Assembly: GCF_045037415.1 (NCBI RefSeq)
Contig: NZ_CP173438.1
Length of the DNA: 64,000 nt
Direction: 5' to 3' (one strand)
DNA from: Escherichia coli
GTDB taxonomy: Bacteria > Pseudomonadota > Gammaproteobacteria > Enterobacterales > Enterobacteriaceae
Shown: positions 37,039-58,419 of the stretch, one piece after another
Layout: every line of letters starts with the position of its first letter
How positions within the stretch are numbered: position 1 is the first letter of the stretch
The notes under the pieces: generated by a model
Seen by the model: the letters and a program-made list of their open reading frames with translations, nothing else
Told to the model about the DNA's origin: nothing
Database searches by the model: none
Program-made: the position numbers and the translations under genes

Positions 37039-37828
37039 CTTCGACTCCTTCCGGTTTAAATGTGCGGGGAACAGTAATTTGATAATCCGGCTCCAGCCAG
37101 CCACCAGGTATGATTTGCCGCTTTCCCGTACCTGTTTCTATACCGCTTTGATCAAGATACTGAAAATAAGGGTGTCCATTACGCCGGGCAAGGTAAAGCA
37201 TCACCCGGTTGGTTTTAATCGAATGACTGGCGCGAAGCAGTGCCTGCAATTTGCGTGGGCTGAGAAGATTCCCCCCCTGAAACAGAGCATCGGCATGTTC
37301 GAACGAGATCAACGAAGGAACGCCGCAGGCGATCTCATACGCGGCCAGTTCCGGTGCACTGCCTGCTAACTGCCGGTCGCCAATTTTCAGTTCCGTAGTA
37401 AATGACGAGACATCAACGGTAAGGCCCGATGTATACAGCGTGATAAATGTTGCTGATTGTTCGAAGGCAGCAAACCATCCCGGCAGTTTGACGTAAGCCG
37501 GAAGCGCGAGCCAGACCTGCGGCTTACCCGGTTCGGTATAGTGCGCATGGCCCTGAAGCGCAAGGCTGGTTAGCCCCGCCACCCGAACAGGCTTTTCCCA
37601 CTGTGTTTGAAGGCAGTAAACCGCGTCTACCCAATCCGGCTCACGGCCCGTCCGGCAGTACACACCGTGAGCGATGCGCCTGAGCCAGCCATTCTGAACA
37701 TAGAGATAAGAAAGCTTACGATCTACGCCATTGCGGGTAAGCCATGACTGGAGCAGCACCTGACCGGGTAGCGTGTTTTGCATCAACCAGTTTAGATAGT
37801 TTGGCAAATGTCGCTCCTGAATAGACAT
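37025..37828 (-). CDS. AbiEi-like antitoxin/transcriptional regulator candidate (267 aa)
   Basis: Immediately upstream of and overlapping the DUF1814-like gene, the arrangement typical of AbiEi-AbiEii pairs; family assignment from memory, not verified. Confidence 0.45.
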   Translation of the reverse strand: MSIQERHLPNYLNWLMQNTLPGQVLLQSWLTRNGVDRKLSYLYVQNGWLRRIAHGVYCRTGREPDWVDAVYCLQTQWEKPVRVAGLTSLALQGHAHYTEPGKPQVWLALPAYVKLPGWFAAFEQSATFITLYTSGLTVDVSSFTTELKIGDRQLAGSAPELAAYEIACGVPSLISFEHADALFQGGNLLSPRKLQALLRASHSIKTNRVMLYLARRNGHPYFQYLDQSGIETGTGKRQIIPGGWLEPDYQITVPRTFKPEGVEDGSA

Positions 37829-38090: not shown

Positions 38091-41000
38091 ATGAAATTCA
38101 CTGAAGATACCCGAGTAAAAATCCCCGTCATCCTCCACCTGATACGGCTGGGCTACCACTACCTGTCCCTTAAAGAACAACGCTGGGACAAAGAAACCAA
38201 TATCTTCCCTGACCTCTTCACCGCTGCGATTGGCAGAATAAATCCCGGACTTGCGCCAGACGACATCGGACGCCTGTTAAAAGACCTCACGCTGCTTCTC
38301 GACAACGATGATCTGGGCCGCGCCTTCTTCGAAAAACTCAGTGACCGTTCCGGTATCAAACTGATCGACTTTGATAACTTCAACAACAACAGTTTCCATG
38401 TCGTCACCGAACTGACATGCGAAAACGGTGATGAAGAATTCCGCCCGGACATCACGCTGCTGATCAACGGCATGCCGCTAATCTTTATCGAAGTGAAAAA
38501 ACCCAACAATCGGGAAGGCATCGTCGCAGAACGCAACCGCATCAACGAACGCTTTAAAAACCCCAAATTCAAACGCTTCGCCAACATCACCCAGTTCATG
38601 ATCTTCTCCAATAACATGGAGTATGACGACAGCGACCCGGAGCCGATTCAAGGGGCATTCTACGCCAGCAGCTCTTACAGCAACCCGGTATTCAACTACT
38701 TCCGCGAAGAAGAACTCTTCAACCTGACCAACTTACTGAAACCGCTGTCAGAAGAAACCGAAATCGCCGTCCTGAAAGACAACAACCTGGAAGTGATCCG
38801 CACCAACCCGGAATTTCAGACCAACAAAGATCACAACCGCCCGACAAACCGCCTCTGCACCGCGCTGTTGAGCCGGGATCGGCTGGCATTTATCCTGCGC
38901 TATGCGCTGGTGTATGTAGCCGAACCGGGCGGCATCCAAAAACACATCATGCGCTACCCGCAGCTCTTCGCCACCAAAGCGATTGAGCGCAAGCTGAACG
39001 CGGGTGTGAAAAAAGGCATTATCTGGCACACCCAGGGCAGTGGGAAAACCGCATTGGCATACTACAACGTGCGCTTCCTGACAGATTACTTCCAGAATCA
39101 GCAGGTGATCCCGAAATTCTACTTTATTGTCGATCGTCTTGATCTGCTCCAGCAGGCGCAGCGTGAATTCACCGCCCGTGGCTTAATCGTTCACCTTATC
39201 GACTCCCGCGAAGCCTTCACTCGCGATATCAAAGCAACGCAGGCGCTGCACAACCACCACGGCAAAGCGGAAATCACCGTCGTCAACATCCAGAAATTCC
39301 GCGATGACCCGGATGTCGTCACCACCAAAGACTACGACATCAACATCCAACGCGTGTACTTCCTCGATGAAGTCCACCGCAGCTACAACCCCAAAGGGAG
39401 CTTCCTGGCGAATTTAAGCCAGTCGGACACCAACGCCATCAAAATTGGCCTGACCGGTACGCCTCTGCTGGGCACAGACTACAACTCCCGCGACCTCTTC
39501 GGCGACTACATCCACAAATACTACTACAACGCCTCCATCGCCGACGGCTACACGCTGCGCCTGATCCGCGAAGAGATCGCCACCAACTACCGAATGATCC
39601 TGCAACAGGCGCTAAAAGAGGTGGAAGTCAGAATGGGCGATGTGGATCGCAAATACATCTACGCCCATCCCAGCTTTGTTAAACCGATGCTGAACTACAT
39701 CGTCACCGACTTTGCCAAAAGCCGGGGCGCGCTGAATGATGACACCATCGGCGGCATGGTGATTTGCGACAGCTCTGAACAGGCCAAGCAGATGTTTGAG
39801 ATATTCAACACTGACTACGCCGAATCGCCCACCGCCGCCGATGAAGTCTCCGAAGAAATGCCGGTATTACAGGCCGCAGAACCTGCCGCCGTTTACCACC
39901 TCCACGCCAAAGAAACGCGGAAAATCAAACGCGCCGCCCTGATCTTGCACGACATCGGCAGCAAGCAGGAGCGCAAAGAATGGGTGGAGCAATTCAAAGC
40001 GGGCAAGATTGACCTGCTGTTCGTTTACAACATGTTGCTCACCGGCTTCGACGCCAAACGGCTGAAAAAACTCTACCTCGGGCGGGTGATCAGAAAGCAC
40101 AACCTGCTCCAGGCGCTGACCCGCGTCAACCGTACGTACAACCACTTCCGCTACGGCTACGTGGTGGACTTCGCCGACATCCGCCAGGAATTTGACGCTA
40201 CCAACAAAGCCTACTTCGAAGAGCTACAGGCTGAACTTGGCGACGAAATGGAGCACTACTCCCGCCTGTTCAAATCGGCGGAAGAGATCCGCGAAGAAAT
40301 CGAACACATCAAAGACGTTCTGTTTAGCTTCGATACCGAAAACGCGGAAATCTTCACTGACCAGATAAACCAGATCCAGGACCGGGAAACCGCGCTGGCG
40401 CTAAAAAACGCGCTGGCCGACGCCCGCAGCCTGTACAACCTCATCCGCCTCCAGGGCAACACTGAGTTTCTCCAGGCGCTGGATTTCAACAAACTCAACA
40501 TCCTTTATCGCGAAGCCAGCCGCCGCCTCGACTTACTCAACCTAAAAGCGGATCTGGAACAGGGCGTTGACCTCTCCGGCCTGCTGAACCGGGCGCTGGA
40601 AGAGGTGATCTTTGAATTCCATAAAGTGGGTGAAGAAGAGCTGGTACTGGCCGACGAGCTGAAAGAGACGCTGCGCCGCACCCGCGAAGCGCTGGCCGCC
40701 AACTTCGACCAGCAGGACCCGCAGTTCGTCAGCCTGAAAGACGAACTGGAGCGTCTGTTTAAGAAAAAGAAACTCAGCGAAGTCACCCAGCAAGAAATGG
40801 TTGCGAATATCGGCACACTCAATAAAATTCATGGCCGCATCAAAGAGCTAAACCGCCAAAACAACCTGCTGCGCCAGAAATACCGGGGCGACGTGAAATA
40901 CGCGCGTACCCACAAACGCCTGCGCGAGCGCGGCGGCCTGAGCGAGCCGGAGCGTAAAATCTTCGAAGCACTGCTTAGCGTTAAGCTGGATGCAGATGAA

Positions 41001-41189
41001 AAAGTGCTGAACAACAGCCAGATACTGAACAATGAAAGCTATTTTGAGCGGCATATGGAGTCATGCGTCATCACGCACTTTGAGGATGAGCACCATATCA
41101 CTCTGACCTCCAGTGCGGTAAGCGACATCAACCGCCTGATTGTGGCGGAATACCTGAACGAATTTAATACCGGAGCACGAACGTGGTAG
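38091..41189 (+). CDS. hsdR: Type I restriction enzyme R subunit HsdR
   Basis: HsdR N-terminal nuclease-like region (PDITLLINGMPLIFIEVKKP), helicase Walker A (QGSGKT), DEVH box (FLDEVHRS), TGTP, motif VI; start at ATG 38091 after aggga. Confidence 0.8.
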   Translation: MKFTEDTRVKIPVILHLIRLGYHYLSLKEQRWDKETNIFPDLFTAAIGRINPGLAPDDIGRLLKDLTLLLDNDDLGRAFFEKLSDRSGIKLIDFDNFNNNSFHVVTELTCENGDEEFRPDITLLINGMPLIFIEVKKPNNREGIVAERNRINERFKNPKFKRFANITQFMIFSNNMEYDDSDPEPIQGAFYASSSYSNPVFNYFREEELFNLTNLLKPLSEETEIAVLKDNNLEVIRTNPEFQTNKDHNRPTNRLCTALLSRDRLAFILRYALVYVAEPGGIQKHIMRYPQLFATKAIERKLNAGVKKGIIWHTQGSGKTALAYYNVRFLTDYFQNQQVIPKFYFIVDRLDLLQQAQREFTARGLIVHLIDSREAFTRDIKATQALHNHHGKAEITVVNIQKFRDDPDVVTTKDYDINIQRVYFLDEVHRSYNPKGSFLANLSQSDTNAIKIGLTGTPLLGTDYNSRDLFGDYIHKYYYNASIADGYTLRLIREEIATNYRMILQQALKEVEVRMGDVDRKYIYAHPSFVKPMLNYIVTDFAKSRGALNDDTIGGMVICDSSEQAKQMFEIFNTDYAESPTAADEVSEEMPVLQAAEPAAVYHLHAKETRKIKRAALILHDIGSKQERKEWVEQFKAGKIDLLFVYNMLLTGFDAKRLKKLYLGRVIRKHNLLQALTRVNRTYNHFRYGYVVDFADIRQEFDATNKAYFEELQAELGDEMEHYSRLFKSAEEIREEIEHIKDVLFSFDTENAEIFTDQINQIQDRETALALKNALADARSLYNLIRLQGNTEFLQALDFNKLNILYREASRRLDLLNLKADLEQGVDLSGLLNRALEEVIFEFHKVGEEELVLADELKETLRRTREALAANFDQQDPQFVSLKDELERLFKKKKLSEVTQQEMVANIGTLNKIHGRIKELNRQNNLLRQKYRGDVKYARTHKRLRERGGLSEPERKIFEALLSVKLDADEKVLNNSQILNNESYFERHMESCVITHFEDEHHITLTSSAVSDINRLIVAEYLNEFNTGARTW

Positions 41190-42820
41190 AACTGGAATTT
41201 AGAGACAAAACCAAAGCCCTGATCGACAGCCTGAAAAGCATCTGTGCGAACTACGGCCTGGGCAACGACGGTAACGAATTCAAAATTATCACTCAGGCAT
41301 TCCTGTACAAATTCCTGAACGACAAATTCGCTTTTGAGGCCAAACAGAAAGATAAAAGTATCGCCAGCGCCGAAAGCTGGGAAGATGCGCTCAGCGCAAT
41401 GAGCGAAGATCAACTGAAAAAGCTGCAACAGCGGATGGCCCCGGATACCGCCCGCCTGAAGCCGCACCATTTTATTCGTTACTTGTATAACCGACAAAAC
41501 GCAGCGGACTTTGCCAGAACTTTTGACGACACCCTGATGGACATCGCCGCCACCAACAACGACGTCTTCGCGGTCAAAACCGACGGCGGCGCGAAAGTGG
41601 TGCTGTTTGAGCGCCTCAGCCAGTACATCGCCGACGAATCAAAGCGCGATGATTTCTGCCGCGCCATCATCAACAAGCTGGCCGATTTCAGCTTCGAACG
41701 CATCTTCACGCAGAAATTCGACTTCTACGCCACCATCTTTGAATACCTGATCAAAGACTACAACAGCAACTCCGGCGGCAAATACGCGGAATACTACACG
41801 CCCCACGCCGTGGCGCGCATCATGGCGGAAATCCTGGTGCCGAAAGCGCAGCAGGGCGTGGTGCGCAACGTAAGCTGTTACGACCCGTCCGCCGGTTCCG
41901 GCACGCTGCTGATGAACGTGGCGCACGCCATTGGGGAAGATCGTTGCAGCATCTTTGCCCAGGATATCTCGCAGAAATCCTCCAGCCTGCTGCGTCTGAA
42001 CCTGATCCTCAACAACCTGGTGCATTCGATCCCTAACGTTATCCAGGGCAACACTATTCTGCATCCGTTCCACAAGGACGGCGGCGCGCTGAAACGCTTT
42101 GACTACATCGTCTCCAACCCGCCGTTTAAGATGGATTTCAGCGACTTTCGTGACGCGCTGGACAGCAAGGAAAACCAGCAACGTTTCTTTGCCGGGATAC
42201 CGAAAATCAAAGCCAAAGCCAGGGACAAAATGGAGATTTACCAGTTGTTCCTGCAACACATCATTTTCTCGCTGAAACCGGGTGGCAAGGCGGCGGTCGT
42301 CGTGCCGACCGGGTTTATCACCGCGCAATCGGGCATTGATAAAGGCATTCGCGAACATCTGGTGCAAAACAAGATGCTGGCGGGCGTGGTTTCCATGCCG
42401 TCGAATATCTTCGCCACCACCGGTACCAACGTGTCGATCCTGTTTATTGACGCCAGCAACAAAGAGAAAGTGGTGCTGATCGACGCCTCGAATTTAGGTG
42501 AAAAGGTCAAAGACGGCAAAAACCAGAAAACGGTGCTGACGGAGTGCGAAGAAAAACGGATCTGCGAAGCGTTTAACAACAAGTGGAGCGAAGAGGATTT
42601 CTCGGTGGTGGTCAGCTATGACGACATCGCCGCGAAAAATTACTCGTTCAGCGCCGGACAGTATTTTGATGTGAAAATCGAATACACCGACATGACGCCG
42701 GAACAGTTTGCCGCGAAGATGAAAGGATTTACGGAGAATCTGAATAATCTCTTTGAACAGTCGCGCGAGTTAGAAGTGCAAATAAAAATGCAGATGGCAG
42801 ATATCAAATATGAAATTTAA
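41183..42820 (+). CDS. hsdM: Type I R-M N6-adenine DNA methyltransferase HsdM
   Basis: AdoMet motif (DPSAGSGTLL) and catalytic NPPF (IVSNPPFKMDF); overlaps the hsdR stop. Confidence 0.8.
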   Translation: MVELEFRDKTKALIDSLKSICANYGLGNDGNEFKIITQAFLYKFLNDKFAFEAKQKDKSIASAESWEDALSAMSEDQLKKLQQRMAPDTARLKPHHFIRYLYNRQNAADFARTFDDTLMDIAATNNDVFAVKTDGGAKVVLFERLSQYIADESKRDDFCRAIINKLADFSFERIFTQKFDFYATIFEYLIKDYNSNSGGKYAEYYTPHAVARIMAEILVPKAQQGVVRNVSCYDPSAGSGTLLMNVAHAIGEDRCSIFAQDISQKSSSLLRLNLILNNLVHSIPNVIQGNTILHPFHKDGGALKRFDYIVSNPPFKMDFSDFRDALDSKENQQRFFAGIPKIKAKARDKMEIYQLFLQHIIFSLKPGGKAAVVVPTGFITAQSGIDKGIREHLVQNKMLAGVVSMPSNIFATTGTNVSILFIDASNKEKVVLIDASNLGEKVKDGKNQKTVLTECEEKRICEAFNNKWSEEDFSVVVSYDDIAAKNYSFSAGQYFDVKIEYTDMTPEQFAAKMKGFTENLNNLFEQSRELEVQIKMQMADIKYEI

Positions 42821-43101
42821 TTATCTGAAAATTAAAGATGTATGTGATTTTGTCGGAGGAAGTCAACCTCCAAAATCTCAATTTATTTATGTATCTAAAC
42901 CTGGATATGTCAGGTTGATCCAGACGCGTGATTACAAAACGGATGCATTTCCCACGTATATACCAATATCGTCGACGAAGAAATTTTGTGATGAATTCGA
43001 TATTATGATTGGTAGGTATGGTCCCCCAATTTTTCAAATATGTCGCGGATTGAAAGGAGCATATAACGTTGCCTTGCTGAAGGTTAGGTAATGACTCCAA
43101 C

Positions 43102-43605
43102 TTATTGATAGTGTTTTATGTTCAGATAATGCCCGATGACTTTGTCATGCAGCTCCACCGATTTTGAGAACGACAGCGACTTCCGTCCCAGCCGTGCCAG
43201 GTGCTGCCTCAGATTCAGGTTATGCCGCTCAATTCGCTGCGTATATCGCTTGCTGATTACGTGCAGCTTTCCCTTCAGGCGGGATTCATACAGCGGCCAG
43301 CCATCCGTCATCCATATCACCACGTCAAAGGGTGACAGCAGGCTCATAAGACGCCCCAGCGTCGCCATCGTGCGTTCACCGAATACGTGCGCAACAACCG
43401 TCTTCCGGAGCCTGTCATACGCGTAAAACAGCCAGCGCTGGCGCGATTTAGCCCCGACATAGCCCCACTGTTCGTCCATTTCCGCGCAGACGATGACGTC
43501 ACTGCCCGGCTGTATGCGCGAGGTTACCGACTGCGGCCTGAGTTTTTTAAGTGACGTAAAATCGTGTTGAGGCCAACGCCCATAATGCGGGCTGTTGCCC
43601 GGCAT
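43102..43605 (-). CDS. insB: IS1 InsB reading frame (expressed as an InsAB fusion by -1 frameshifting)
   Basis: Canonical IS1 insB sequence including [17 protein letters not shown]. Confidence 0.85.
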
Positions 43606-43799
43606 CCAACGCCATTCATGGCCATATCAATGATTTTCTGGTGCGTACCGGGTTGAGAAGCGGTGTAAGTGAACTGCAGTTGCCATGTTTTACGGCAGTG
43701 AGAGCAGAGATAGCGCTGATGTCCGGCGGTGCTTTTGCCGTTACGCACCACCCCGTCAGTAGCTGAACAGGAGGGACAGCTGATAGAAACAGAAGCCAC
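43524..43799 (-). CDS. insA: IS1 InsA (91 aa)
   Basis: [24 protein letters not shown]... Confidence 0.9.
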
Positions 43800-44975
43800 T
43801 GGAGCACCTCAAAAACACCATCATACACTAAATCAGTAAGTTGGCAGCATCACCGAAGGTTATACCTAAAGAAGGTGTAAGTCGTGATTTTTTATACTAT
43901 TTTTTGAAGCAAGACTCTGTTTTCCAATATGTTGATAAATTATCTGCCAGAACCGGAGGACAAACTGGAGTTGATCTAGTTTCTTTAAAAGAATATCCAG
44001 TCAGGATACCTGAAGAAATTGAATGTCAAGAAAAATTGGTGACTATTCTTAGTGTTATTGATAAAAAAATCGCCCTCAACAACCGCATCAACACGGAACT
44101 GGAAGCGATGGCGAAAACACTGTATGACTACTGGTTTGTACAGTTTGATTTCCCTGATGCCAACGGAAAACCGTATAAAACCTCCGGCGGGAAGATGGAG
44201 TATAACGCCACGCTGAAACGGGAAATTCCGGCAGGTTGGAATGACTCCATTCTTGGTAAGTTTATTGAGTTAGATCGTGGCGTTACTTATAGCAAAGAGG
44301 ATGTTCGAACTCAGGATGATAAAGATACGATAGGCATTCTTCGCGCTACAAATGTGACGGGAAATAATGTTGATATTGATGATTTAGTCTTCATTCCTTC
44401 TAGTAGAGTAAACGTTAATCAAATGCTAAATAAATTTGACATATTGATCGTGATGTCAAGTGGTAGTAAGGAGCATGTAGGGAAGAATGGCGTGTATTAT
44501 TTCGAAAAAAAAACATGCATTTGGCGCATTTTGTTCAAAAATTACACCCGTCAGAAAATACAGATATTTTATAAATACATTCCTGCAATCGAAATGGTTT
44601 AAGTCTTATATAAACAATCAGTGCTTGGGAACTAATATTAATAACCTGACCAATACGCATATCACTAATTGTGAAATCATATGCCCCACTCCTGATGTTG
44701 TGGCGTTATTCGAGAATAAAATGATGCCAATTTATAATAAACTGGCATCAAACACTCAAGAGAATAGTCATTTAATCCAACTCCGCGACTGGCTCCTCCC
44801 TCTACTTATGAACGGACAGGTCACGGTCAAATAATCCCCGGCGTGGTTTTGCGAGGCGCATTCCAGATCCGCATTGCGCCGCACTCACCGCAGCAAAACC
44901 GCTTGCCGTTCATAACCGATCGCAGTATCTTTCTCCCGCGCCTGCAAAATCAGGCGTCGGGATTAGCCTCCTGAA

Positions 44976-45167
44976 AACCGTTACAGGCGACACTTGACGC
45001 ACCAGCGTCTTTTTTGTGTCGTGCGTTCGGCTACACCTCAATGGCGGGCCGGGCGGGGGCGTCGCAAGACGCGCCGGTTTCCTGTAACGCCGGTAAGGCT
45101 AACCCCGTCCGGTTCCGCCCCCATGAGATTAGCCTCTCTAGTGGCGGACATAATAAACCGTTACAGG
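44976..45167 (+). repeat. Three copies of the motif CGTTACAGG (direct at 44978-44987 and 45158-45167, inverted at 45081-45089), with a second repeated block gattagcctc at 44961 and 45127; upstream of the orphan ORF
   Basis: Read directly from the sequence. Confidence 0.5.
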
Positions 45168-45176
45168 AGACGCCCT

Positions 45177-45647
45177 ATGGCTACAATCCTCATCTCTGAC
45201 TGCGATTTACTCGATCTATTGTCCGCTCCCTTCAATGCCACCACGGATTTCACCGTCCTGGCCGACTACTGCGCCCGCTTCGCCGAAACCCTGATAGAAA
45301 CCGACGATCCGGCGCTGCGGCTGGCGCTCTGCGGACGGCTTCACGCGGCTCTTGCGCTATTGCAACCCACGCTGCACGACCCCATCCCGCCGCATCTGAT
45401 TGAAAGCCTGACCGTTGATACCCTTCCCGCCACACCAGAGCACTTTATTTCCGAACCAGATTCCTTGTGCGAATACTGCCTCGCGCTGCTCCAGCTACTG
45501 CTGGAACGTCCAGCAGAGCCAAAAACGGAACAAACCCTGACCGGGCTTCTGTGTGAGCTGGTCTGGAATTTCACGGAAGGACTCAAATCCCCGCGCTGGC
45601 TGCGTACCGCCGACGGCGTAAAATTTATCAGTGAGGTGGCCGCATGA
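45177..45647 (+). CDS. Hypothetical protein, 156 aa, no recognised domain
   Basis: ATG 45177 preceded by SD aggag; the longer 217-aa ORF is a GC-rich upstream extension with no SD; Leu/Ala-rich acidic protein. Confidence 0.4.
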
Positions 45648-45792
45648 TGCAACAGGACTGACATTCCGCCGACATTATTGCGGTGCTGAAAAAGCGGGGA
45701 ACGCCTCTGGCGGCACAGAGAAAAACTCATTGCGGAAGCGCTGTAAATATCGCCAGAAATCATCTGGTCCTCAAGGTACTTTGATAGCAAAG

Positions 45793-45879
45793 GCAAGCTG
45801 GCTGGTTCAGTCCGGAGTCTCTCTTCTTGCACTTAAAGAGATGGGAGGATGGGAAACTCTTGAAATGGTTCGTCGTTAG
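45793..45879 (+). pseudogene. Remnant of a tyrosine-integrase 3' end (...[28 protein letters not shown]), copy B, next to intact thrW
   Basis: Integrase C-terminal signature truncated by TAG at the conserved Tyr codon position. Confidence 0.45.
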
Positions 45880-46010
45880 GCTCACCTTTCAGCCAGGCAT
45901 TTCACCGGGCACGCGAGCAAAATCGATGCGATTATAAGTCGCAATGGCACAAATACGGCACAAGAGGAGAACGTGGTGTATTTAAATATGGGGTAACTAC
46001 TTGATTTTAA

Positions 46011-46086
46011 TGGTGCCGATAATAGGAGTCGAACCTACGACCTTCGCATTACGAATGCGCTGCTCTACCAACTGAGCTATATCGGC
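46011..46086 (-). tRNA. thrW: tRNA-Thr (anticodon CGU), 76 nt including CCA
   Basis: Reverse complement reads GCCGATATAGCTCAGTTGGTAGAGCAGCGCATTCGTAATGCGAAGGTCGTAGGTTCGACTCCTATTATCGGCACCA; cloverleaf arms and CGT anticodon identifiable. Confidence 0.9.
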
Positions 46087-46200
46087 CCTGAAAGGACATG
46101 TTCACGAACGTGAATCACGGTGGACAAGGTTAAAACTAACCGGGCGATGCGTCAATGGCCTTGTGAATCAAATGGCTACTTTTGCATCACCCGGTTTTAT

Positions 46201-47454
46201 TTACGCACGAATGGTGTAATCACCAATGCCGATCCACTTGTAAGTGGTCAGTGCTTCCAGCCCCATTGGGCCGCGCGCGTGGAGTTTTTGTGTGCTTACC
46301 GCCACTTCCGCCCCCAGTCCAAACTGGCCGCCGTCGGTAAAACGCGTAGAGGCGTTAACGTAAACAGCGGAGGAATCCACTTCGTTAACAAAACGCTGGG
46401 CGTTGCGCATATCGCGGGTCAGGATCGCATCGGAGTGTTGCGTGCCGTGTTCACGAATATGGGCAATGGCGTCATCCAGATCGCTAACGATTTTGACGTT
46501 CAAATCTAATGACAGAAACTCATCGTCATACTCTTCGGCTTTAACAGCCACCACCTTCGCGGGGCCTGCCTGCAACTGCGCCAGCGCGGCTGTATCAGCG
46601 TGTAACGTCACGCCGCTTTCCGCCATTTGTTTGCTTAATGCGGGCAGGAAGCTATCAGCGATGTTTTTATTCACCAGCAACGTTTCTACCGTATTACACG
46701 TGCTCGGACGCTGAGTTTTCGCGTTGACAATTACTTTCAGGGCTTCAGCGATCTCTGCGCTTTCATCAACGTAAATATGGCATACGCCTATACCGCCTGT
46801 GATCACCGGGATTGTCGACTGCTCGCGGCACAGTTTATGCAAACCAGCCCCGCCGCGCGGGATCAGCATGTCGATGTATTTATCCATACGCAGCATTTCA
46901 CTGACCAGCGCACGGTCAGGATTATCAATCGCCTGCACGGCACCCGCCGGTAAGCCACAAGAGTTCAGGGCGTCCTGAATCACCGCCACCGTTGCAGCGT
47001 TAGTGCGACACGTTTCTTTGCCGCCGCGCAGGATCACTGCGTTACCTGTTTTCAGGCACAGCGAAGCGACATCAACCGTCACGTTCGGGCGCGCTTCATA
47101 AATCACGCCAATAACCCCCAGCGGTACGCGACGACGCTCAAGACGCAGGCCGCTGTCCAGTACGCCGCCATCGATTACCTGCCCCACCGGATCGGCGAGG
47201 TTGCACACCTGGCGCACATCATCGGCAATGCCTTTCAGCCGTGCGGGCGTCAGTGTCAGACGGTCAAGCATCGCTTCGCTAAGGCCATTGGCACGCGCGT
47301 CTGCAACATCCTGCGCGTTAGCGTTGAGGATACTTTCGCTTTGTGCTTCCAGTTCATCGGCGATTTTTTCCAGCACACGATTTTTTTCGCGGCTGGAGAG
47401 TTGCGCTAATTTATACGAGGCTTGCTTCGCGGCAATGCCCATTTGTTCCAGCAT
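46201..47454 (-). CDS. proA: Gamma-glutamyl phosphate reductase ProA (417 aa)
   Basis: Recognised sequence and length; adjacent to proB. Confidence 0.9.
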
Positions 47455-47465
47455 CGGCCAGCTCC

Positions 47466-48569
47466 TTAACGGGTAATCATGTCATCACGGTGAACGGCAA
47501 CCGGGCCGTATTCATATCCCAGTATTGCATCAATTTCTTGCGAGTGGTGTCCGGCAATACGGCGTAATGCATCGCTGTTGTAACGACTGACGCCGTGGGC
47601 GATATCGCGACCTTCGAGGTTGCAAATACGGATGACTTCACCACGCGAGAAATTGCCAGTCACGCTTTTAATGCCTTTCGGCAACAGGGAGCTGCCGCGT
47701 TCCAGAATGGCGGCAGTTGCCCCTTCATCTACCGTGATTTCACCCGCAGGCGGCGCACCGAAAATCCAGCGTTTACGGTTTTCAAGCGGAGTCGCCTGGG
47801 CATGGAACAGCGTACCGACGGAAATGCCTTCCATCACATCACCAATAACGCCCGGCTTGCTGCCCGCGGCAATAATGGTGTCGATACCCGCACGGCAAGC
47901 CACGTCAGCGGCCTGCAATTTGGTGCTCATACCGCCAGTTCCGAGGCCTGAAACGCTATCACCGGCAATCGCGCGCAGTGCGTCATCAATGCCGTACACA
48001 TCTTTAATCAGTTCTGCCTGCGGATTGCTGCGCGGGTCAGCGGTATACAAACCTTTTTGATCGGTCAGCAGCAACAGTTTATCGGCACCCGCCAGAATCG
48101 CCGCCAGCGCAGAAAGGTTATCGTTATCACCGACCTTAATCTCTGCCGTAGCGACAGCATCGTTCTCATTAATTACCGGAACGATATTGTTATCGAGCAA
48201 CGCACGCAGGGTATCGCGGGCGTTCAGGAAGCGTTCACGATCTTCCATATCAGCACGGGTCAGCAACATCTGCCCGACATGAATGCCGTAAATTGAAAAC
48301 AGCTGTTCCCACAGTTGAATCAGTCGACTCTGCCCTACCGCCGCCAGCAGCTGTTTTGAAGCGATAGTCGCTGGCAATTCCGGGTACCCCAGGTGCTCAC
48401 GTCCGGCGGCAATCGCACCCGACGTCACAATAACAATCCGATGCCCGGCGGCATGTAACTGCGCGCACTGGCGAACAAGTTCAACGATATGGGCACGGTT
48501 CAGGCGGCGCGATCCGCCTGTTAGCACACTGGTGCCGAGTTTTACCACCAGCGTCTGGCTGTCACTCAT
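47466..48569 (-). CDS. proB: Glutamate 5-kinase ProB (367 aa)
   Basis: Start taken at [16 protein letters not shown] (ATG 48569); kinase plus C-terminal PUA-like region. Confidence 0.9.
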
Positions 48570-48758
48570 GATTCTCTGCCATTCAATTTTAGGAAAAAAT
48601 GATATCAAACGAACGTTTTAGCAGGACTGTCGTCGGTTGCCAACCATCTGCGAGCAAAGCATGGCGTTTTGTTGCGCGGGATCAGCAAGCGTAGCGGCAG
48701 TTGTTTACGCTTTTATTACAGATTTAATAAATTACCACATTTTAAGAATATTATTAAT

Positions 48759-48785
48759 CTGTAATATATCTTTAACAATCTCAGG
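48759..48785 (+). promoter_or_regulatory. Pho box (PhoB site) in the phoE promoter: CTGTAATATATCTTTAACAATCTCAGG
   Basis: Tandem CTGTAAT-like 7-mers with about 11-bp periodicity, about 70 bp upstream of the phoE start. Confidence 0.5.
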
Positions 48786-48857
48786 TTAAAAACTTTCCTG
48801 TTTTCAACGGGACTCTCCCGCTGAATATTCGCGCGTTAATTAAAATCAGGAATGAAA

Positions 48858-49913
48858 ATGAAAAAGAGCACTCTGGCATTAGTGGTGATGGGCATTGTGG
48901 CATCTGTATCCGTACAGGCCGCAGAAATATATAACAAAGACGGTAATAAACTGGATGTCTATGGCAAAGTTAAAGCCATGCATTATATGAGTGATAATGA
49001 CAGTAAAGATGGCGACCAGAGTTATATCCGTTTTGGTTTTAAAGGCGAAACACAAATTAACGATCAACTGACTGGTTATGGTCGTTGGGAAGCTGAGTTT
49101 GCCGGTAATAAAGCGGAGAGTGATACTGCACAGCAAAAAACGCGTCTCGCTTTTGCCGGGTTGAAATATAAAGATTTGGGTTCTTTCGATTATGGTCGTA
49201 ACCTGGGCGCGTTGTATGACGTGGAAGCCTGGACCGATATGTTCCCGGAATTTGGTGGCGACTCCTCGGCGCAGACCGACAACTTTATGACCAAACGCGC
49301 CAGCGGTCTGGCGACGTATCGGAACACCGACTTCTTCGGCGTTATCGATGGCCTGAACTTAACCCTGCAATATCAAGGGAAAAACGAAAACCGCGACGTT
49401 AAAAAGCAAAACGGCGATGGCTTCGGCACGTCATTGACATATGACTTTGGTGGCAGCGATTTCGCCATCAGTGGAGCCTATACCAACTCTGATCGCACCA
49501 ACGAGCAGAACCTGCAAAGCCGTGGCACAGGCAAGCGTGCAGAAGCATGGGCAACAGGTCTGAAATACGATGCCAATAATATTTATCTGGCAACTTTCTA
49601 TTCTGAAACACGTAAAATGACGCCAATCTCTGGCGGCTTTGCCAATAAGACGCAGAACTTTGAAGCGGTCGCTCAATACCAGTTTGACTTTGGTCTGCGT
49701 CCATCGCTGGGTTATGTCTTATCGAAAGGGAAAGATATTGAGGGCATCGGTGATGAAGATCTGGTCAATTATGTCGATGTTGGTGCTACGTATTATTTCA
49801 ACAAAAATATGTCAGCGTTTGTTGATTATAAAATCAACCAACTGGATAGCGATAACAAATTGAATATTAATAATGATGATATTGTCGCGGTTGGCATGAC
49901 CTATCAGTTTTAA
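48858..49913 (+). CDS. phoE: Phosphate-starvation outer-membrane porin PhoE
   Basis: Signal peptide [16 protein letters not shown]..., porin barrel, C-terminal ...GMTYQF. Confidence 0.9.
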
Positions 49914-49951
49914 TGGATATTGCCGGATGTGATGCATCCGGCACATTTCAT

Positions 49952-50410
<459 letters not shown>

Positions 50411-51655
50411 TTAACACAAACGTTTTTCGATCCAGTCTGTGATTTCCTGAAGGCCTTTGTCAAAATTCCGATACACCGGGTTAAATGGGATCTCTAATAA
50501 TTTACCGTCAGCAGATGACGACGTGATTAAGCGTGAGTCCTCTTCCGGGCTGAACGGATCGTTCTTCCAGTAGCCTGATAACATTGGCGTTGGGCAGCGA
50601 CGTCCCAGCAACCCTTGCACTTTTAATGAATAGCGATTCAGCTCCACGCGCAACGCTTCGTCAGAAGCATCATGCATCCCCAAACGACTCGCCAGAACGT
50701 CAAGATACATTTCCGGCACCTGTTGCTGGCACTTAAAATCACTCAACAGGGTATGAACTACCGGACCAAGACAGGCAACCGCTTTCAGACGCGGCGATTC
50801 AAGGTATGCCAGACGTACGGCAACGTTAGCGCCGAAACGGAAACCAAAGGCCGCGACGCGAGTGTGATCCACCCACGGTACGTTAGGCAACGCCTTTAAA
50901 ACGTGCTGATGCAACAGGCTGGAGTCCTGGGTGAGCTTCCATTTTGAAGAAAAGCCCACCGACGGCATATCAATAGTCAGCATCGCAATGCCGCGCAGCG
51001 CAAAATAACGTTCATACAGGCTGTAATAGTCTGTCTGCATCGCATCCAGACCACCACACATTAATACTGTCGGGAACGGGCCATCGCCTTTCGGCATATG
51101 CAAAAAGCCGGTGATGGGCGCACCGCCGGGTACGGTAAACTCCATCTGCCGCATCGTGCCCGGCAGACGCTGAGCGGCCTCTTCATAGGCGCGGTTTGAC
51201 AAAGCCTGCGCTTGCTCGGCCAGGTCATCTCCTTTCAGATGAGGATAGGCAGCAATGTTGTACAACGTAGCCGCATGCAGCCAGTGTCGACCGCTGAGTT
51301 GCGGATCTTCTTCCGCACAGGCTTTTTGTTGCCACACCATCGCCTGGGTAGCCCACTCATAAATCCAGTTGCCGCCGCGGTAGCCAATCACCGTATCGTA
51401 TAAATCATCGTCGGTACGTTCGGCATCGCTCATCACAATACGCGCCTGGACTTCGAGGATTTCACGGGGGTCAATGCCGCGCCAGATCCACATCAGACGG
51501 TTAATCATGCGATACCAGTGAGGGATGGTTTTACCATCAAGGGCCGACTGCACAGGCAGTTGTGCGCCGTGACTAAAGCGGCGGACTAGCGTCGAGGTTT
51601 CAGGATGTTTAAAGCGGGGTTTGAACAGGGTTTCGCTCAGGTTTGCCTGTGTCAT
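50411..51655 (-). CDS. frsA: Esterase FrsA (414 aa)
   Basis: Alpha/beta hydrolase with GFRFGANVA nucleophile-elbow-like motif; length and synteny. Confidence 0.85.
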
Positions 51656-51746
51656 AGATGCAGCCTCCAGAATACTTACTGGAAACTATTGTAACCCGCC
51701 TGAAGTTAAAAAGAACAACGCCCGGCAGTGCCAGGCGTTGAAAAGA

Positions 51747-52205
51747 TTAGCGACCGGAGATTGGCGGGACGAATACGACGCCCATATCCCACGGCTGTTC
51801 GATCCAGGTATTTTGCGGGATATCAACAACATAATCATCAACCAGCGGACGACCAGCCGGTTTTGCGAAGATGGTGACAAAGTGCGCTTTTGGATACATT
51901 TCACGAATCGCAACCGCAGTACCACCGGTATCTACCAGGTCATCAATAACGATGAAGCCTTCGCCATCGCCTTCTGCGCGTTTCAGCACTTTAAGCTCGC
52001 GCTGGTTGTCGTGATCGTAGCTGGAAATACAAACGGTATCGACATGACGAATACCCAGTTCACGCGCCAGTAACGCACCCGGTACCAGACCGCCACGGCT
52101 TACGGCAATAATGCCTTTCCATTGTTCAGAAGGCATCAGTCGGCTTGCGAGTTTACGTGCATGGATCTGCAACATGTCCCAGGTGACGATGTATTTTTCG
52201 CTCAT
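51747..52205 (-). CDS. gpt: Xanthine-guanine phosphoribosyltransferase Gpt (152 aa)
   Basis: PRPP-binding motif ([14 protein letters not shown]). Confidence 0.9.
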
Positions 52206-52465
52206 GTGAAGTGTCCCAGCCTGTTTATCTACGGCTTAAAAAGTGTTCGAGGGGAAAATAGGTTGCGCGAGATTATAGAGATCTGGCGCACTAAAAACCA
52301 GTATTTCACATGAGTCCGCGTCTTTTTACGCACTGCCTCTCCCTGACGCGGGATAAAGTGGTATTCTCAAACATATCTCGCAAGCCTGTCTTGTGTTGAC
52401 AACATTTTCTGCTAACCCTGTGACCTGCAATACTGTTTTGCGGGTGATCGACAAGGAGACTTAAC

Positions 52466-53923
52466 GTGTCTGAACTGTCTCAATTATCTCCACAGCCGCT
52501 GTGGGATATTTTTGCCAAAATCTGTTCTATTCCTCACCCGTCCTATCATGAAGAGCAACTCGCTGAATACATTGTTGGTTGGGCAAAAGAGAAAGGTTTC
52601 CATGTCGAACGCGATCAGGTAGGTAATATCCTGATTCGTAAACCTGCTACCGCAGGTATGGAAAATCGTAAACCGGTCGTCTTGCAGGCCCACCTCGATA
52701 TGGTGCCGCAAAAAAATAACGACACCGTGCATGACTTCACTAAAGATCCTATCCAGCCTTATATTGATGGCGAATGGGTTAAAGCGCGCGGCACCACGCT
52801 GGGTGCGGATAACGGCATTGGTATGGCCTCCGCACTGGCGGTTCTGGCTGACGAAAACGTGGTTCACGGCCCGCTGGAAGTGCTGCTGACCATGACTGAA
52901 GAAGCCGGTATGGACGGTGCGTTCGGCTTACAGAGCAACTGGTTGCAGGCTGATATTCTGATTAACACCGACTCCGAAGAAGAAGGTGAAATCTACATGG
53001 GATGTGCGGGGGGTATCGACTTCACCTCCAACCTGCATTTAGATCGTGAAGCGGTTCCAGCTGGTTTTGAAACCTTCAATTTAACCTTAAAAGGTCTGAA
53101 AGGCGGTCACTCCGGCGGTGAAATCCACGTTGGCCTGGGTAATGCCAACAAACTGCTGGTGCGCTTCCTGGCGGGTCATGCAGAAGAACTGGACCTGCGT
53201 CTTATTGATTTCAACGGCGGCACACTGCGTAACGCCATCCCGCGTGAAGCCTTTGCGACCATTGCTGTCGCAGCTGATAAAGTCGACGCCCTGAAATCTC
53301 TGGTGGATACCTATCAGGAGATCCTGAAAAACGAACTGGCAGAAAAAGAGAAGAATCTGGCATTGCTGCTGGACTCCGTAGCGAACGACAAAGCTGCATT
53401 AACGGCGACATCTCGCGATACCTTTATTCGTCTGCTGAACGCCACCCCGAACGGAGTTATCCGTAATTCCGATGTAGCCAAAGGCGTGGTTGAAACCTCC
53501 CTGAACGTCGGTGTGGTGACCATGACCGACAATAACGTAGAAATTCACTGCCTGATCCGTTCTCTGATCGACAGCGGTAAAGACTACGTAGTGAGCATGC
53601 TGGATTCGCTGGGTAAACTGGCAGGTGCGAAAACCGAAGCAAAAGGCGCATATCCTGGCTGGCAGCCGGACGCTAACTCTCCGGTAATGCATCTGGTACG
53701 TGAAACCTATCAGCGTCTGTTCAACAAGACGCCGAACATCCAGATTATCCACGCGGGCCTGGAATGTGGTCTGTTCAAAAAACCGTATCCGGAAATGGAC
53801 ATGGTGTCTATCGGGCCAACCATCACCGGTCCACACTCCCCGGATGAGCAAGTTCATATCGAAAGCGTTGGCCATTACTGGACACTGCTGACTGAACTGC
53901 TGAAAGAAATTCCGGCGAAGTAA
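52466..53923 (+). CDS. pepD: Cytosol non-specific dipeptidase PepD (485 aa), GTG start
   Basis: M20-family metallopeptidase motifs (HLDMVPQ, GADNGIGMA); length. Confidence 0.9.
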   Translation: MSELSQLSPQPLWDIFAKICSIPHPSYHEEQLAEYIVGWAKEKGFHVERDQVGNILIRKPATAGMENRKPVVLQAHLDMVPQKNNDTVHDFTKDPIQPYIDGEWVKARGTTLGADNGIGMASALAVLADENVVHGPLEVLLTMTEEAGMDGAFGLQSNWLQADILINTDSEEEGEIYMGCAGGIDFTSNLHLDREAVPAGFETFNLTLKGLKGGHSGGEIHVGLGNANKLLVRFLAGHAEELDLRLIDFNGGTLRNAIPREAFATIAVAADKVDALKSLVDTYQEILKNELAEKEKNLALLLDSVANDKAALTATSRDTFIRLLNATPNGVIRNSDVAKGVVETSLNVGVVTMTDNNVEIHCLIRSLIDSGKDYVVSMLDSLGKLAGAKTEAKGAYPGWQPDANSPVMHLVRETYQRLFNKTPNIQIIHAGLECGLFKKPYPEMDMVSIGPTITGPHSPDEQVHIESVGHYWTLLTELLKEIPAK

Positions 53924-53978
53924 TTATTTGATTTGCTGCCGGATGGCGTTTAACGCCTTCCGGCAGTTTCATCCTTCA

Positions 53979-54593
53979 TTATCCTTCGATAAAAGCCATC
54001 CCTGTGAACGTTCGTCGCGGGTTGCCACGTTCAATCTGGTGATGGAACATTCGCCGCTGCGATTTCAGCGCCGCGCTATTTTCCTGTTGCTGTTGTTCCA
54101 GCTTCCAGGCAATCAGTAATCGCGCCAGCCGTTTGTTAGCATGCTGACTGCGCTCTGACTGAACCTTCACGCTAATACCGGATGCCAGATGCGTGGCGCG
54201 TACCGCCGAGTCGGTTTTATTGACATGTTGACCGCCCGGCCCCGACGAACGCAGCGTCTCATAACGGATTGCATCCGATTGTTCCTGCTCATCAGCGGTA
54301 AAACGCCCAATGCCCAGAAACCAGTTTTTGCGCCCATGATGAGGCCGATACGGACTCGGACAAATCCACTGAATAGTGCCGCACCAGCTTTCGCTTAGAG
54401 CCCATGCGTTATCGCCATCCAGAGAAATCAGCGCCGAACGCAGTGTGTCAGAGTAGCGACCCGTTTCTGTTTCCAGCACCGTTACCGCGACGTCCTGTCG
54501 GGTAGCTTCTTTAATCAGCCTGTCCAGTGCTTTTTTCACTGCGAGACAACATTCTTCCGGCCCCTGAGCAGAGGAGAGTTGTAGCAAGATCAT
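53979..54593 (-). CDS. prfH: Peptide chain release factor homolog PrfH, full length (204 aa) with GGQ motif
   Basis: [16 protein letters not shown] motif; start ATG 54593 overlaps the stop of the upstream rtcB-like gene (ATGA). Confidence 0.75.
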
Positions 54594-55741
54594 CCTTTTT
54601 TCCCTCCACTGTTTTTGAGCGTCAGCACCGGGCGCAGTCGCGCGACAGGAATAATTAACCCAGCCAGCACCAGACATTGCACCACGCTTTCAGCCGATTT
54701 ATAGGCTTGTGGCGCTTCTTCAAAGATGAGTTGTTTATCGCGACAAATTACCCGACTGCCAAGTTCAGTCCGCGAGAGTTGCGTCGCCGTGTATTTCGCT
54801 GCCAGACGCCCTTTACACTCGGTGCGCCCCCATTTACGCCCCGCCCCATGCGCCAGCGAGTGGAGCGTTTTTTCGTTCGCAACAGGTTTAACCAGCCAGG
54901 AGTAATCGCCGCGTGAACCGGGAATAATCACCAGACCGTTGTCATCCGGCGTGGCGCCTTTACGATGCAACCAGCCCTGTTGATCGCCGATTTGGCACGC
55001 GCTAACAAAGTTATGCGCCACATCCAGAACCGGACTTCCGGTGGCCTTAACTTGTTGCATTATGCGCAAAGCGATCAGCTGGCGATTAATACGCGCAAAC
55101 GCCAGCGCATCGTCATGTTCCGCAATATACCGTAGCGCGTCGTCACTGCCTTCAGGCAAACCATGATGCGAAAACGAGGCAATATGCCGCTGTAAAATAG
55201 ACTGCCCCAATCCCCTCGAGCCGCTATGAACCAGTAGTTGCAGATGCTGCGCATCCAGACCAGCCCGTGCAAACAGTTCCGCGTCGATAATTTGATCAAT
55301 CTGTTGCAGTTCTGCGAAGTGGTTACCGCCACCGATGGAGCCAAGCGAGTTGTGCCACGGATGCTGTGCAAATGCTGACGGCAGGTTTTCCTCCAGCCAG
55401 CTTTCTTCAGCAACGTCATCCAGATCTGATAATCGCTTTTCAAACTTATCGGCGTTGTATTTGCGAGCGAGAATATCTGTTTGCCATAGCGCCATGCCGC
55501 AGCCGATATCATTGCCGACCAGTGCCGGGTAAAAACGACCAACAGAGAAGAACGCTGCGCCAATCGGGTAGCCGCGTCCGGGATGTAAATCTGGCATCCC
55601 CACAACGCGCTGCATGTTGGGTAAATTTGCCGTGGTGTGTAATTGTTGGATCGCTAAACTCTCGATCCACAGGTCATCAGATGCGATGGTAAATACCGCA
55701 TCGGATAAGGGACGAATATATTTGCCCATGTACCATTCCAT
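54590..55741 (-). CDS. RtcB-family RNA ligase paralog (partner of PrfH; intact counterpart of the K-12 ykfJ fragment)
   Basis: RtcB-like sequence with metal-binding His/Cys context ([17 protein letters not shown]); translationally coupled to prfH. Confidence 0.75.
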
Positions 55742-55918
55742 TTATGAATAAAAATCAGGAAATGGCAGACGAATCCAGGGCAAGAAAAAAGAATTAATCC
55801 TGGAAAGGTCTGCAAAGAGTCATTGATAAAGGATTTGTCATGATTTACCTCCTTGCAGTTTGTGGAATAAGAAAACGCGCACATACTAGACGGGCGTTAT
55901 TTTCATTGCAAGCTGGAT

Positions 55919-56371
55919 TTAATGTTGCGGTTTATATCGCATATAAAAATTAGTAAACCACGTTCCCCGGCATTCAACGCGCTGCTGCTTAACTGTCTGA
56001 AAACCATAACGTTCAAAAAAGGGTTTTGCGGTTATGCTGGCGTCCACCGTAAGTTCGGATTCAGACTTAATCAATGGTTTTAACAAAGCGCTGGCAACTC
56101 CGCGTCGGGTGTATTCCGGTTCAACAAATAACATATCGATATAATGTCCAATGCGGGTAATAAAACCAACCGGTTGTGCATTAATAACTGCAACCCGCAC
56201 TTGTGATTTCGCGAGTTTCTCCTTCCAGCGAGATTCGTCAATCTGCGCCCAGGCGGCAATTTGCTGTGGAGAATAGTGCTGACTCGCCGTCATCGTAACA
56301 GCTCGAAGGAAAATAGCGCATAGTTGCTGAAAATCACCAGGCTGATAGTTTCTTATTTGTATGTTATTCAT
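55919..56371 (-). CDS. yafP: GNAT-family acetyltransferase YafP (150 aa)
   Basis: GNAT fold motifs; ATG overlaps the dinB stop (ATGA). Confidence 0.8.
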
Positions 56372-57423: not shown

Positions 57424-57437
57424 TGCTCACCTCTCAA

Positions 57438-57457
57438 TACTGGTAAAGTATACAGTG
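57438..57457 (-). promoter_or_regulatory. LexA (SOS) box upstream of dinB: CACTGTATACTTTACCAGTA on the minus strand
   Basis: CTGT-N8-ACAG-type palindrome 15-35 nt upstream of the dinB start. Confidence 0.65.
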
Positions 57458-57493
57458 ATTTCAGGGTTTGAGAAATGCGTAAAGATTCAGCAT

Positions 57494-58417: not shown

Positions 58418-58419
58418 GC

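Follow-up and report, generated by a model that had tools for sequence, protein, structure and literature searches.

In a 64,000-nucleotide stretch of Escherichia coli DNA (contig NZ_CP173438.1; hereafter the window), the hsdS gene of a type I restriction-modification (R-M) system is interrupted by an insertion sequence and contains, further downstream, a run of nine adenines that throws it out of frame. A sequence-only reading took these changes as two independent lesions. How many of them are real, and what would they do to restriction and modification in this strain? Comparison with other genomes indicates that the locus is very probably EcoMIII on GI-thrW of an ST131 strain, in which an intact IS1 in hsdS is predicted to abolish both RTACN4GTG methylation and restriction, the extra A being either neutral slippage or a consensus error.

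Identity and setting of the operon

The window carries the three genes of a type I cluster in the order hsdR, hsdM, hsdS, the last of which spans 42810-44834 (repaired gene). The two intact genes and the neighbours that place them on the island are the following.

36118..37807, - strand: abiEii/abiEi toxin-antitoxin pair, adjoining hsdR on GI-thrW (from the annotation of the identical sequence in strain 4/1-1)
38091..41189, + strand: hsdR of EcoMIII, 1032 aa, intact
41183..42820, + strand: hsdM of EcoMIII, 545 aa, intact
46011..46086, - strand: tRNA-Thr (CGT), the thrW attachment site bounding the island, followed by proA

Both hsdR and hsdM, which had been called intact from the sequence, are base-for-base the active alleles, with 100% nucleotide identity to the genes for WP_000673070.1 (strains 4/1-1 and THO-003) and WP_000229741.1, respectively. 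The 3´ end of hsdM overlaps the start of hsdS by 11 nt. HsdR matches the NCBIfam model TIGR00348 (hsdR) with E=6.5e-77 and HsdM matches TIGR00497 (hsdM) with E=1.5e-42, both below the curated cutoffs; the RefSeq annotation names the identical DNA HsdR, HsdM, and HsdS. The assignment of the third gene as the hsdS of a type I system also holds, the repaired HsdS being WP_000671528.1.

In strain EC958, WP_000673070.1, WP_000229741.1, and WP_000671528.1 are annotated beside tRNA-Thr and proA, and the window encodes an identical HsdR, an identical HsdM, and, once repaired, an identical HsdS. The type I system on GI-thrW of EC958 is EcoMIII, which methylates RTACN4GTG at >99% of sites, and knockout of EcoMIII in EC958 results in the loss of this methylation (Forde et al., 2015, mBio, PMC4659465). 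The window shares with EC958 the island and the hsdR-hsdM-hsdS order in addition to these proteins. The two differ in hsdS, which is intact in EC958, whereas the window gene holds IS1 (and A9) and is predicted to be null.

A complete IS1 element in hsdS

The element, its target-site duplication, and the pieces of hsdS around it are arranged as follows (TRD, target recognition domain).

42810..43086, + strand: hsdS 5´ fragment, codons 1-92, part of TRD1
43079..43086: left copy of the 8-bp target-site duplication GAAGGTTA
43087..43854, - strand: complete IS1, 768 bp, antisense to hsdS
43102-43605, - strand: insB, intact, 167 aa
43524-43799, - strand: insA, intact, 91 aa
43855..43862: right copy of the 8-bp target-site duplication GAAGGTTA
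43863..44504, + strand: hsdS middle fragment, with the remaining TRD1, the central conserved region, and the start of TRD2
44505..44513, + strand: A9 homopolymer, A8 in the wild type
44514..44834, + strand: hsdS 3´ fragment, with the remaining TRD2 and the C-terminal conserved region, one base off the frame of the middle fragment

Elements of the IS1 family are about 768 bp long, have imperfect terminal inverted repeats of ~23 bp, and carry insA and insB´ joined by a -1 frameshift at an A6C site. They duplicate 8-9 bp of target, 8 bp being the less common length, and prefer AT-rich targets. The element in hsdS agrees with the family in its length and ends, in its insA/insB´ pair with the A6C site, and in its direct duplication. 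Imperfect terminal inverted repeats, GGTAATGACTCCAACTTATTGAT and GGTGATGCTGCCAACTTACTGAT, form its ends. The insA and insB products both match the NCBIfam NF033558 IS1 transposase model and together span its 199 positions end to end, and the A6C frameshift motif TTAAAAAAC lies in the insA/insB overlap (as the reverse complement at ~43545-43553). The duplication is 8 bp rather than 9 bp long because the next bases outward differ. With a target gene that is AT-rich (37% GC in hsdS compared with 52-53% in hsdM and hsdR), every structural hallmark of classical IS1 insertional inactivation is present and no material difference from it was found.

Excision of IS1 together with one GAAGGTTA copy restores the wild-type gene exactly at the insertion site, which confirms to the base the earlier placement of the element, its 8-bp duplication, and the continuity of the frame after its removal. 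As the gene stands, the 5´ ORF runs into IS1 and stops at 43091, giving 93 aa; the middle fragment shares its frame after removal of 776 nt. When the element, a single duplication copy, and a single A are taken out, hsdS becomes a 1248-nt, 415-codon ORF that ends at 44834, the single ORF that had been foreseen for an A8 tract; it matches, at 100% identity, the hsdS annotated as intact in ST131 strain 4/1-1 (WP_000671528.1). The repaired protein contains two Pfam Methylase_S matches (residues 4-174, E=2.6e-10; residues 215-367, E=0.005), and its TRD2 aligns with TRD1 of EcoKI HsdS (E=1e-24). Two target recognition domains with conserved regions between them are found in the repaired HsdS only; both are interrupted in the window, the first Methylase_S domain by IS1 and the second by the A tract. 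A TTG at 43841 starts a 253-codon ORF that spans the IS1/hsdS junction.

This junction was absent from all RefSeq complete genomes searched with the junction sequence, and no protein identical to the 93-aa N-terminal stub, to the 115-aa C-terminal ORF, or to the 253-aa junction ORF (starting with either L or M) was found on exact look-up. A single 'full-length' junction match consists of two joined pieces ~550 bp apart. The window holds a second IS1 copy, from which the copy in hsdS differs by 2 substitutions and an 11-bp indel. The IS1 insertion is a firm lesion and would suffice alone to abolish restriction and modification.

Close relatives and other disrupted alleles

Apart from these lesions, no difference separates the window from strain 4/1-1 over ~63 kb or from THO-003 over ~25 kb (100% identity in both cases), and a direct check showed the hsdS of THO-003 to be intact. 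The other IS1 of the window is shared by 71 complete genomes, all of which belong to the 538 RefSeq complete genomes possessing the segment around the A tract, a set with neither A9 nor the IS1/hsdS junction. These comparisons show the lesions to be confined to this strain. An attempt to date the events by SNP markers was abandoned, the two 'mismatches' against 4/1-1 being alignment spill-over into the second IS1 and informative substitutions being absent.

The hsdS allele is carried, over at least 80% of its length, by ~519 complete genomes. The full-length copies sampled among them were, with one exception, intact and identical at 100%; only three disrupted alleles came to light. In strains 18044 (NZ_AP022326.1) and 22726 (NZ_CM190138.1), IS1 lies in hsdS after nt 709 and nt 1067, respectively; strain Z0117EC0055 (NZ_CP098203.1) carries a CATT duplication at hsdS nt 662, a 4-nt tandem duplication. 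These strains belong to the same clone as the one studied here and likewise have a disrupted hsdS beside intact hsdR and hsdM, with IS1 as the agent in two of the three. They differ in that none has A9 and in that the IS1 of 18044 and 22726 is another isoform, ~93% identical to the element studied here, which is inserted after nt 277; 9-bp duplications were deduced for those two strains from the locus length. No earlier description of these disrupted alleles was found in the literature on EcoMIII or on ST131 hsdS and insertion sequences. Strong recurrent selection for loss of hsdS was considered and rejected, with only three disrupted alleles seen among ~519 carriers, nearly all of them intact. 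The AT-rich target preference of IS1 is explanation enough for its hits in this gene.

The extra adenine in TRD2

The nine adenines cause a +1 shift, as first read, at codons 309/310 within TRD2, and the shifted frame stops at 44602. The 338-aa A9 product, truncated at its C terminus, would keep TRD1 in full together with the central conserved region, followed by ~95 residues of broken TRD2 and a 29-residue out-of-frame tail. A wild-type length of A8 is supported by sequence comparison because the intact orthologues are identical and the downstream FGAFC motif shared with EcoKI HsdS is read in the A8 frame; identity to the gene for WP_000671528.1 reaches 100% only when A9 is changed to A8. The exact A8 segment is present in 535 of the 538 RefSeq complete genomes, and neither A9 nor A7 occurs in any of the 538.

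We favor, at somewhat better than even probability, a sequencing or consensus error as the origin of the extra A, in which case IS1 is the only lesion of the strain. No other homopolymer in the 64 kb is as long as the A9 tract (a single one reaches 8), and the extra A is the sole base-level difference from close relatives in ~63 kb. The contig resolves two IS1 copies, which makes a long-read origin probable, and residual long-read errors concentrate on the longest homopolymers. Public assemblies point the same way. Public protein collections contain products of A6, A7, A9, and A10 alike, each recorded on 2 to 83 contigs (83 for A7). Most of the A9 assemblies inspected have further homopolymer errors close by: one contig (L029) has +1 changes in T6, A6, and T7 runs, another (L030) reads C8 for C7, and a third (L028) has four other 1-nt deletions. 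Of 12 inspected A6/A7 assemblies, 7 also lose bases in C7, G6, or G5 runs. The idea that these products mark a biological mutational hotspot was rejected after the carrier contigs had been aligned, because the frequent base losses with A6/A7 and the frequent +1 changes or scattered 1-nt deletions with A9 are a platform-error signature. Against a consensus error, the window matches the reference at its other A8 run (26129-26136), at the C7 run (37271-37277), and at each of the thirteen 7-nt runs, so that errors are not widespread in this assembly. Some public A9 contigs (L031, 10.8 kb; L009-L012) are also free of other indels.

A real second mutation, produced by replication slippage in A8 and neutrally fixed before or after the IS1 insertion, is a serious possibility that falls somewhat short of even. 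The A9 is present in the sequence as given, the assembly is otherwise clean at 14 runs of at least 7 nt, and strains 18044, 22726, and Z0117EC0055 attest to the independent natural decay of hsdS. However, the A9 allele is found in none of the 538 high-quality genomes, and two private hits in one 1.25-kb gene, with no substitution in ~63 kb, would be unlikely without selection. Of the two independent lesions initially proposed, the IS1 insertion stands; the extra A is not established as a biological lesion, being private, located in the longest homopolymer, absent from the 538 genomes, and part of a tract that is often miscalled.

A role of the tract in phase variation, switching EcoMIII between on and off or altering its specificity in the manner of the poly-G tract in hsdS of NgoAV, is very improbable. 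The likeness to NgoAV of Neisseria gonorrhoeae and to other type I systems that vary through simple sequence repeats (SSRs) lies in a mononucleotide run within hsdS, a change in whose length truncates HsdS past TRD1 and the central conserved region, and in the presence of A6, A7, A9, and A10 products in public collections. In contrast to those systems, the EcoMIII tract has only 8 nt, which is short for a contingency locus, and shows no reliable length polymorphism in E. coli genomes. The appreciable variation in tract length that marks SSR phase-variable R-M genes was not found among the 538 RefSeq complete genomes, so that the earlier suggestion of a phase-variable tract is not supported. 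The variant alleles inspected lie mostly in contigs with other homopolymer miscalls, and the tract can switch nothing once IS1 is present.

At most a very slim chance is left for a causal link in which A9 arose first, the resulting half-HsdS of 338 aa dimerized into a new palindromic specificity harmful to the unmodified chromosome, and IS1 in TRD1 was selected as a rescue: truncation of HsdS at the C terminus leaves EcoDXXI, EcoR124I, and NgoAV active, with a symmetric specificity, and the A9 product keeps the corresponding parts, but this is precedent only, no clean A9-only genome exists among the 538, the product is burdened with its broken TRD2 and out-of-frame tail, and a chromosome faced with a new specificity is normally shielded by restriction alleviation.

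Predicted phenotype

In other ST131 strains, HsdS guides both the M2S1 methylase and the R2M2S1 nuclease to RTACN4GTG. The strain studied here has an intact IS1 that has transposed in antisense orientation into hsdS codon 92/93, within TRD1. A 93-residue HsdS stub remains, and the downstream part of hsdS seems to have neither a credible start codon nor a promoter of its own. HsdM and HsdR would both be unable to find DNA on their own; with HsdS lost, RTACN4GTG methylation and EcoMIII restriction are predicted to be lost despite sequence-perfect hsdR and hsdM. The extra A would also wreck TRD2. It adds no further consequence because IS1 is already there, and would represent neutral slippage in an already dead gene or a residual homopolymer consensus error.

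HsdS is needed for methylation and restriction alike in type I R-M systems (Loenen et al., 2014, PMC3874165). This established biology supports the initial proposal that loss of the specificity subunit abolishes both activities, and we infer an r-m- phenotype for this strain. The ORF that starts at TTG-43841 and crosses the junction is a point against a complete null, as it might yield a truncated product; such a protein would be short of 90 TRD1 residues and, given A9, of most of TRD2.

Significance

The hsdS lesion is an ordinary strain-specific pseudogene, a case of sporadic gene decay in an already known system. The hsdS A8 tract is miscalled in many public assemblies, giving rise to database entries of frameshifted HsdS (A6, A7, A9, A10) that could pass for phase variation or gene decay and call for caution. 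Were the improbable causal link true, a pandemic E. coli clone would carry, in the A tract of EcoMIII, a latent switch of specificity. Should the phenotype predicted from the IS1 insertion hold, this ST131 isolate would lack one of the three m6A marks typical of the lineage (RTACN4GTG) and one barrier to incoming DNA, and its own DNA would be restricted on entry into EcoMIII-positive relatives. As befits a routine pseudogene, the significance is limited; its relevance is to strain-level studies of plasmid exchange and methylomes.

The EcoMIII locus

The interrupted gene belongs to EcoMIII, the GI-thrW type I system. The following features define the locus.

36118-37807, AbiEi/AbiEii toxin-antitoxin pair, adjoining hsdR
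38091-41189, + strand, hsdR
41183-42820, + strand, hsdM
42810-44834, + strand, hsdS
about 45793-45996, integrase remnants of GI-thrW with internal stops
46011-46086, tRNA-Thr(CGT)

At the nucleotide level, the hsdR and hsdM genes, which the sequence-only reading had called intact, match the genes encoding WP_000673070.1 and WP_000229741.1 exactly. Both accessions, together with WP_000671528.1 for HsdS, are annotated in the reference ST131 strain EC958, in which the hsd cluster is flanked by an AbiEi/AbiEii toxin-antitoxin pair and tRNA-Thr/proA. EcoMIII of EC958 methylates RTACN4GTG at >99% of sites, as established by SMRT sequencing and knockout (Forde et al. 2015, PMC4659465). When the region was searched by megablast against 5,426 complete E. 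coli genomes, the uninterrupted 1248-nt hsdS gene turned up in many genomes of human origin, among them O25:H4/O25b:H4 (ST131-type) strains. The island itself is degraded in the window; in the reference annotation, integrase remnants lie beside tRNA-Thr and again past AbiEii.

An IS1 element interrupts hsdS

Direct reading of the sequence and a script check both confirmed an IS1 with an 8-bp target duplication within hsdS.

43079-43086 and 43855-43862, target duplication GAAGGTTA, 8 bp
43087-43854, - strand, IS1, 768 bp, with IS1 terminal inverted repeats at its ends
43102-43605, - strand, insB, 167 codons (ORF and NF033558 match)
43524-43799, - strand, insA, 91 codons (ORF and NF033558 match)

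The duplication cannot be extended to 9 bp. InsA and InsB jointly span NF033558, the NCBIfam model of the IS1 transposase, from end to end, and the element has the A6C frameshift motif. It lies after codon 92, within target recognition domain 1 (TRD1), and reduces hsdS as it stands to a 93-aa stub. It is antisense to hsdS, and the remainder of the gene is located 3' of it with no promoter of its own. When IS1, one copy of the duplication and a single A are taken out by script, the predicted ORF (1248 nt, 415 aa) is restored; it is 100% identical to the intact WP_000671528.1 gene of strain 4/1-1. The hsdS gene is a strain-specific pseudogene of a known system, produced by a classical mechanism.

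The window and strain 4/1-1 are 100% identical over 1-43086, 43855-59280 and 60038-64000 apart from the extra A, and differ only by this A and two IS1 insertions. Two apparent mismatches proved to be alignment spill-over into the second IS1.

59272-59280 and 60038-60046, 9-bp duplication TATTTTTTG of the second IS1
59281-60037, second IS1, defective, 757 bp, with an 11-bp deletion in insB

The Flag-2 lateral-flagellar sigma-factor gene and motA flank this second copy. Two substitutions and the 11-bp deletion separate it from the hsdS copy, of which it is therefore not the donor. Its junction is common to 71 RefSeq complete genomes and thus marks an ST131 sublineage that includes this strain. 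THO-003, the one member of the 71 examined directly, has an intact hsdS; over 25 kb its only differences from the window are the absence of the hsdS IS1 and of the additional A. The hsdS::IS1 junction was found in no complete genome searched. Both lesions therefore originated, or show up, on the branch of this strain alone.

The A tract of hsdS

The run at 44505-44513 comprises nine A, as confirmed by reading and by script. It encodes Lys309-Lys310 within TRD2 of HsdS. In the repaired protein, Pfam Methylase_S matches residues 4-174 and 215-367, and TRD2 (residues 213-366, window about 44222-44685) aligns with EcoKI HsdS TRD1 (PDB 2y7c, E=1e-24). In the alignment to EcoKI HsdS, the FGAFC motif shortly 3' of the tract is kept only in the A8 frame, which independently confirms A8 as the functional length.

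The suggestion that the tract mediates phase variation is not supported: it is short, and reliable length polymorphism was absent from both the inspected variant contigs and the 538 RefSeq complete genomes containing the segment, of which 535 match the A8 version exactly and none the A7 version or, at >=99%, the A9 query. Predicted frameshift products are on record in the protein/contig collection (A6, 26 contigs; A7, 83; A9, 4; A10, 2), against at least 1000 contigs for the A8 product. A biological hotspot was rejected as their source because alignments of the carrier contigs revealed homopolymer miscalls nearby. Seven of 12 inspected A6/A7 contigs also lost bases in nearby C7, G6 or G5 runs; among A9 contigs, L029 carries three more one-base insertions (at T6, A6 and T7), L030 reads C8 for C7, and L028 has four further single-base deletions. 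Contigs free of other errors are limited to L031 (10.8 kb) and a few of 2-5 kb. In the main, therefore, the length variants look like platform errors, and the tract is a known base-calling trouble spot.

A real slippage event is a fair contender for the window's A9, as the other A8 run, the C7 run and thirteen runs of 7 nt are free of error, and the assembly is therefore otherwise clean. A residual consensus error is nevertheless the reading we lean slightly towards: the tract is the longest homopolymer of the 64-kb window, it holds the sole single-base difference from relatives, and A9 is matched by none of the 538 genomes and occurs mostly in contigs with other miscalls. The original proposal of two independent lesions is thus only half secure, with the IS1 insertion as its firm half.

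Sporadic loss of hsdS

Three further complete genomes carry independent lesions of the same hsdS.

Strain 18044, IS1 after nt 709
Strain 22726, IS1 after nt 1067
Z0117EC0055 (dog, South Korea; NZ_CP098203.1, L032), CATT 4-nt tandem duplication at nt 662, annotated by RefSeq as a frameshifted pseudogene

The IS1 isoform of 18044 and 22726 is ~93% identical to the window's hsdS copy. The allele is present over >=80% of its length in about 519 genomes, and all but one of the sampled full-length matches are intact and 100% identical. IS1 target preference suits AT-rich DNA, which fits the composition of hsdS (37% GC, versus 52-53% for hsdM/hsdR). Loss of hsdS is sporadic decay, for which selection is needless as an explanation. 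Literature searches found the characterisation of EcoMIII and no description of its disrupted hsdS alleles.

In some non-ST131 E. coli (the ETEC hits H140 and H141), hsdS shares nt 471-1248 (the central conserved region and TRD2) at 98% identity but diverges in its 5' part. The pattern suggests TRD shuffling to another specificity, and the partial sharing explains why 538 genomes contain the A-tract segment versus about 519 with the whole allele.

Functional consequences

HsdS is required for the M2S1 methylase as well as the R2M2S1 nuclease. Because IS1 by itself leaves a 93-aa stub, the status of A9 is irrelevant to function. The remainder of hsdS, 3' of the antisense IS1, lacks a promoter, and the intact hsdR and hsdM would be idle. 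The phenotype predicted from type I biology is loss of RTACN4GTG methylation and EcoMIII restriction.

The 'frameshifted HsdS' entries for A6, A7, A9 and A10 (2 to 83 contigs each; public contigs L006-L012 and L016-L031) call for caution in surveys of pseudogenes and phase variation. By sequence, EcoMIII TRD2 shows clear homology to EcoKI TRD1. The latter recognises AAC; the EcoMIII half-site for TRD2 would be GTG/CAC, and the pair might aid specificity prediction.
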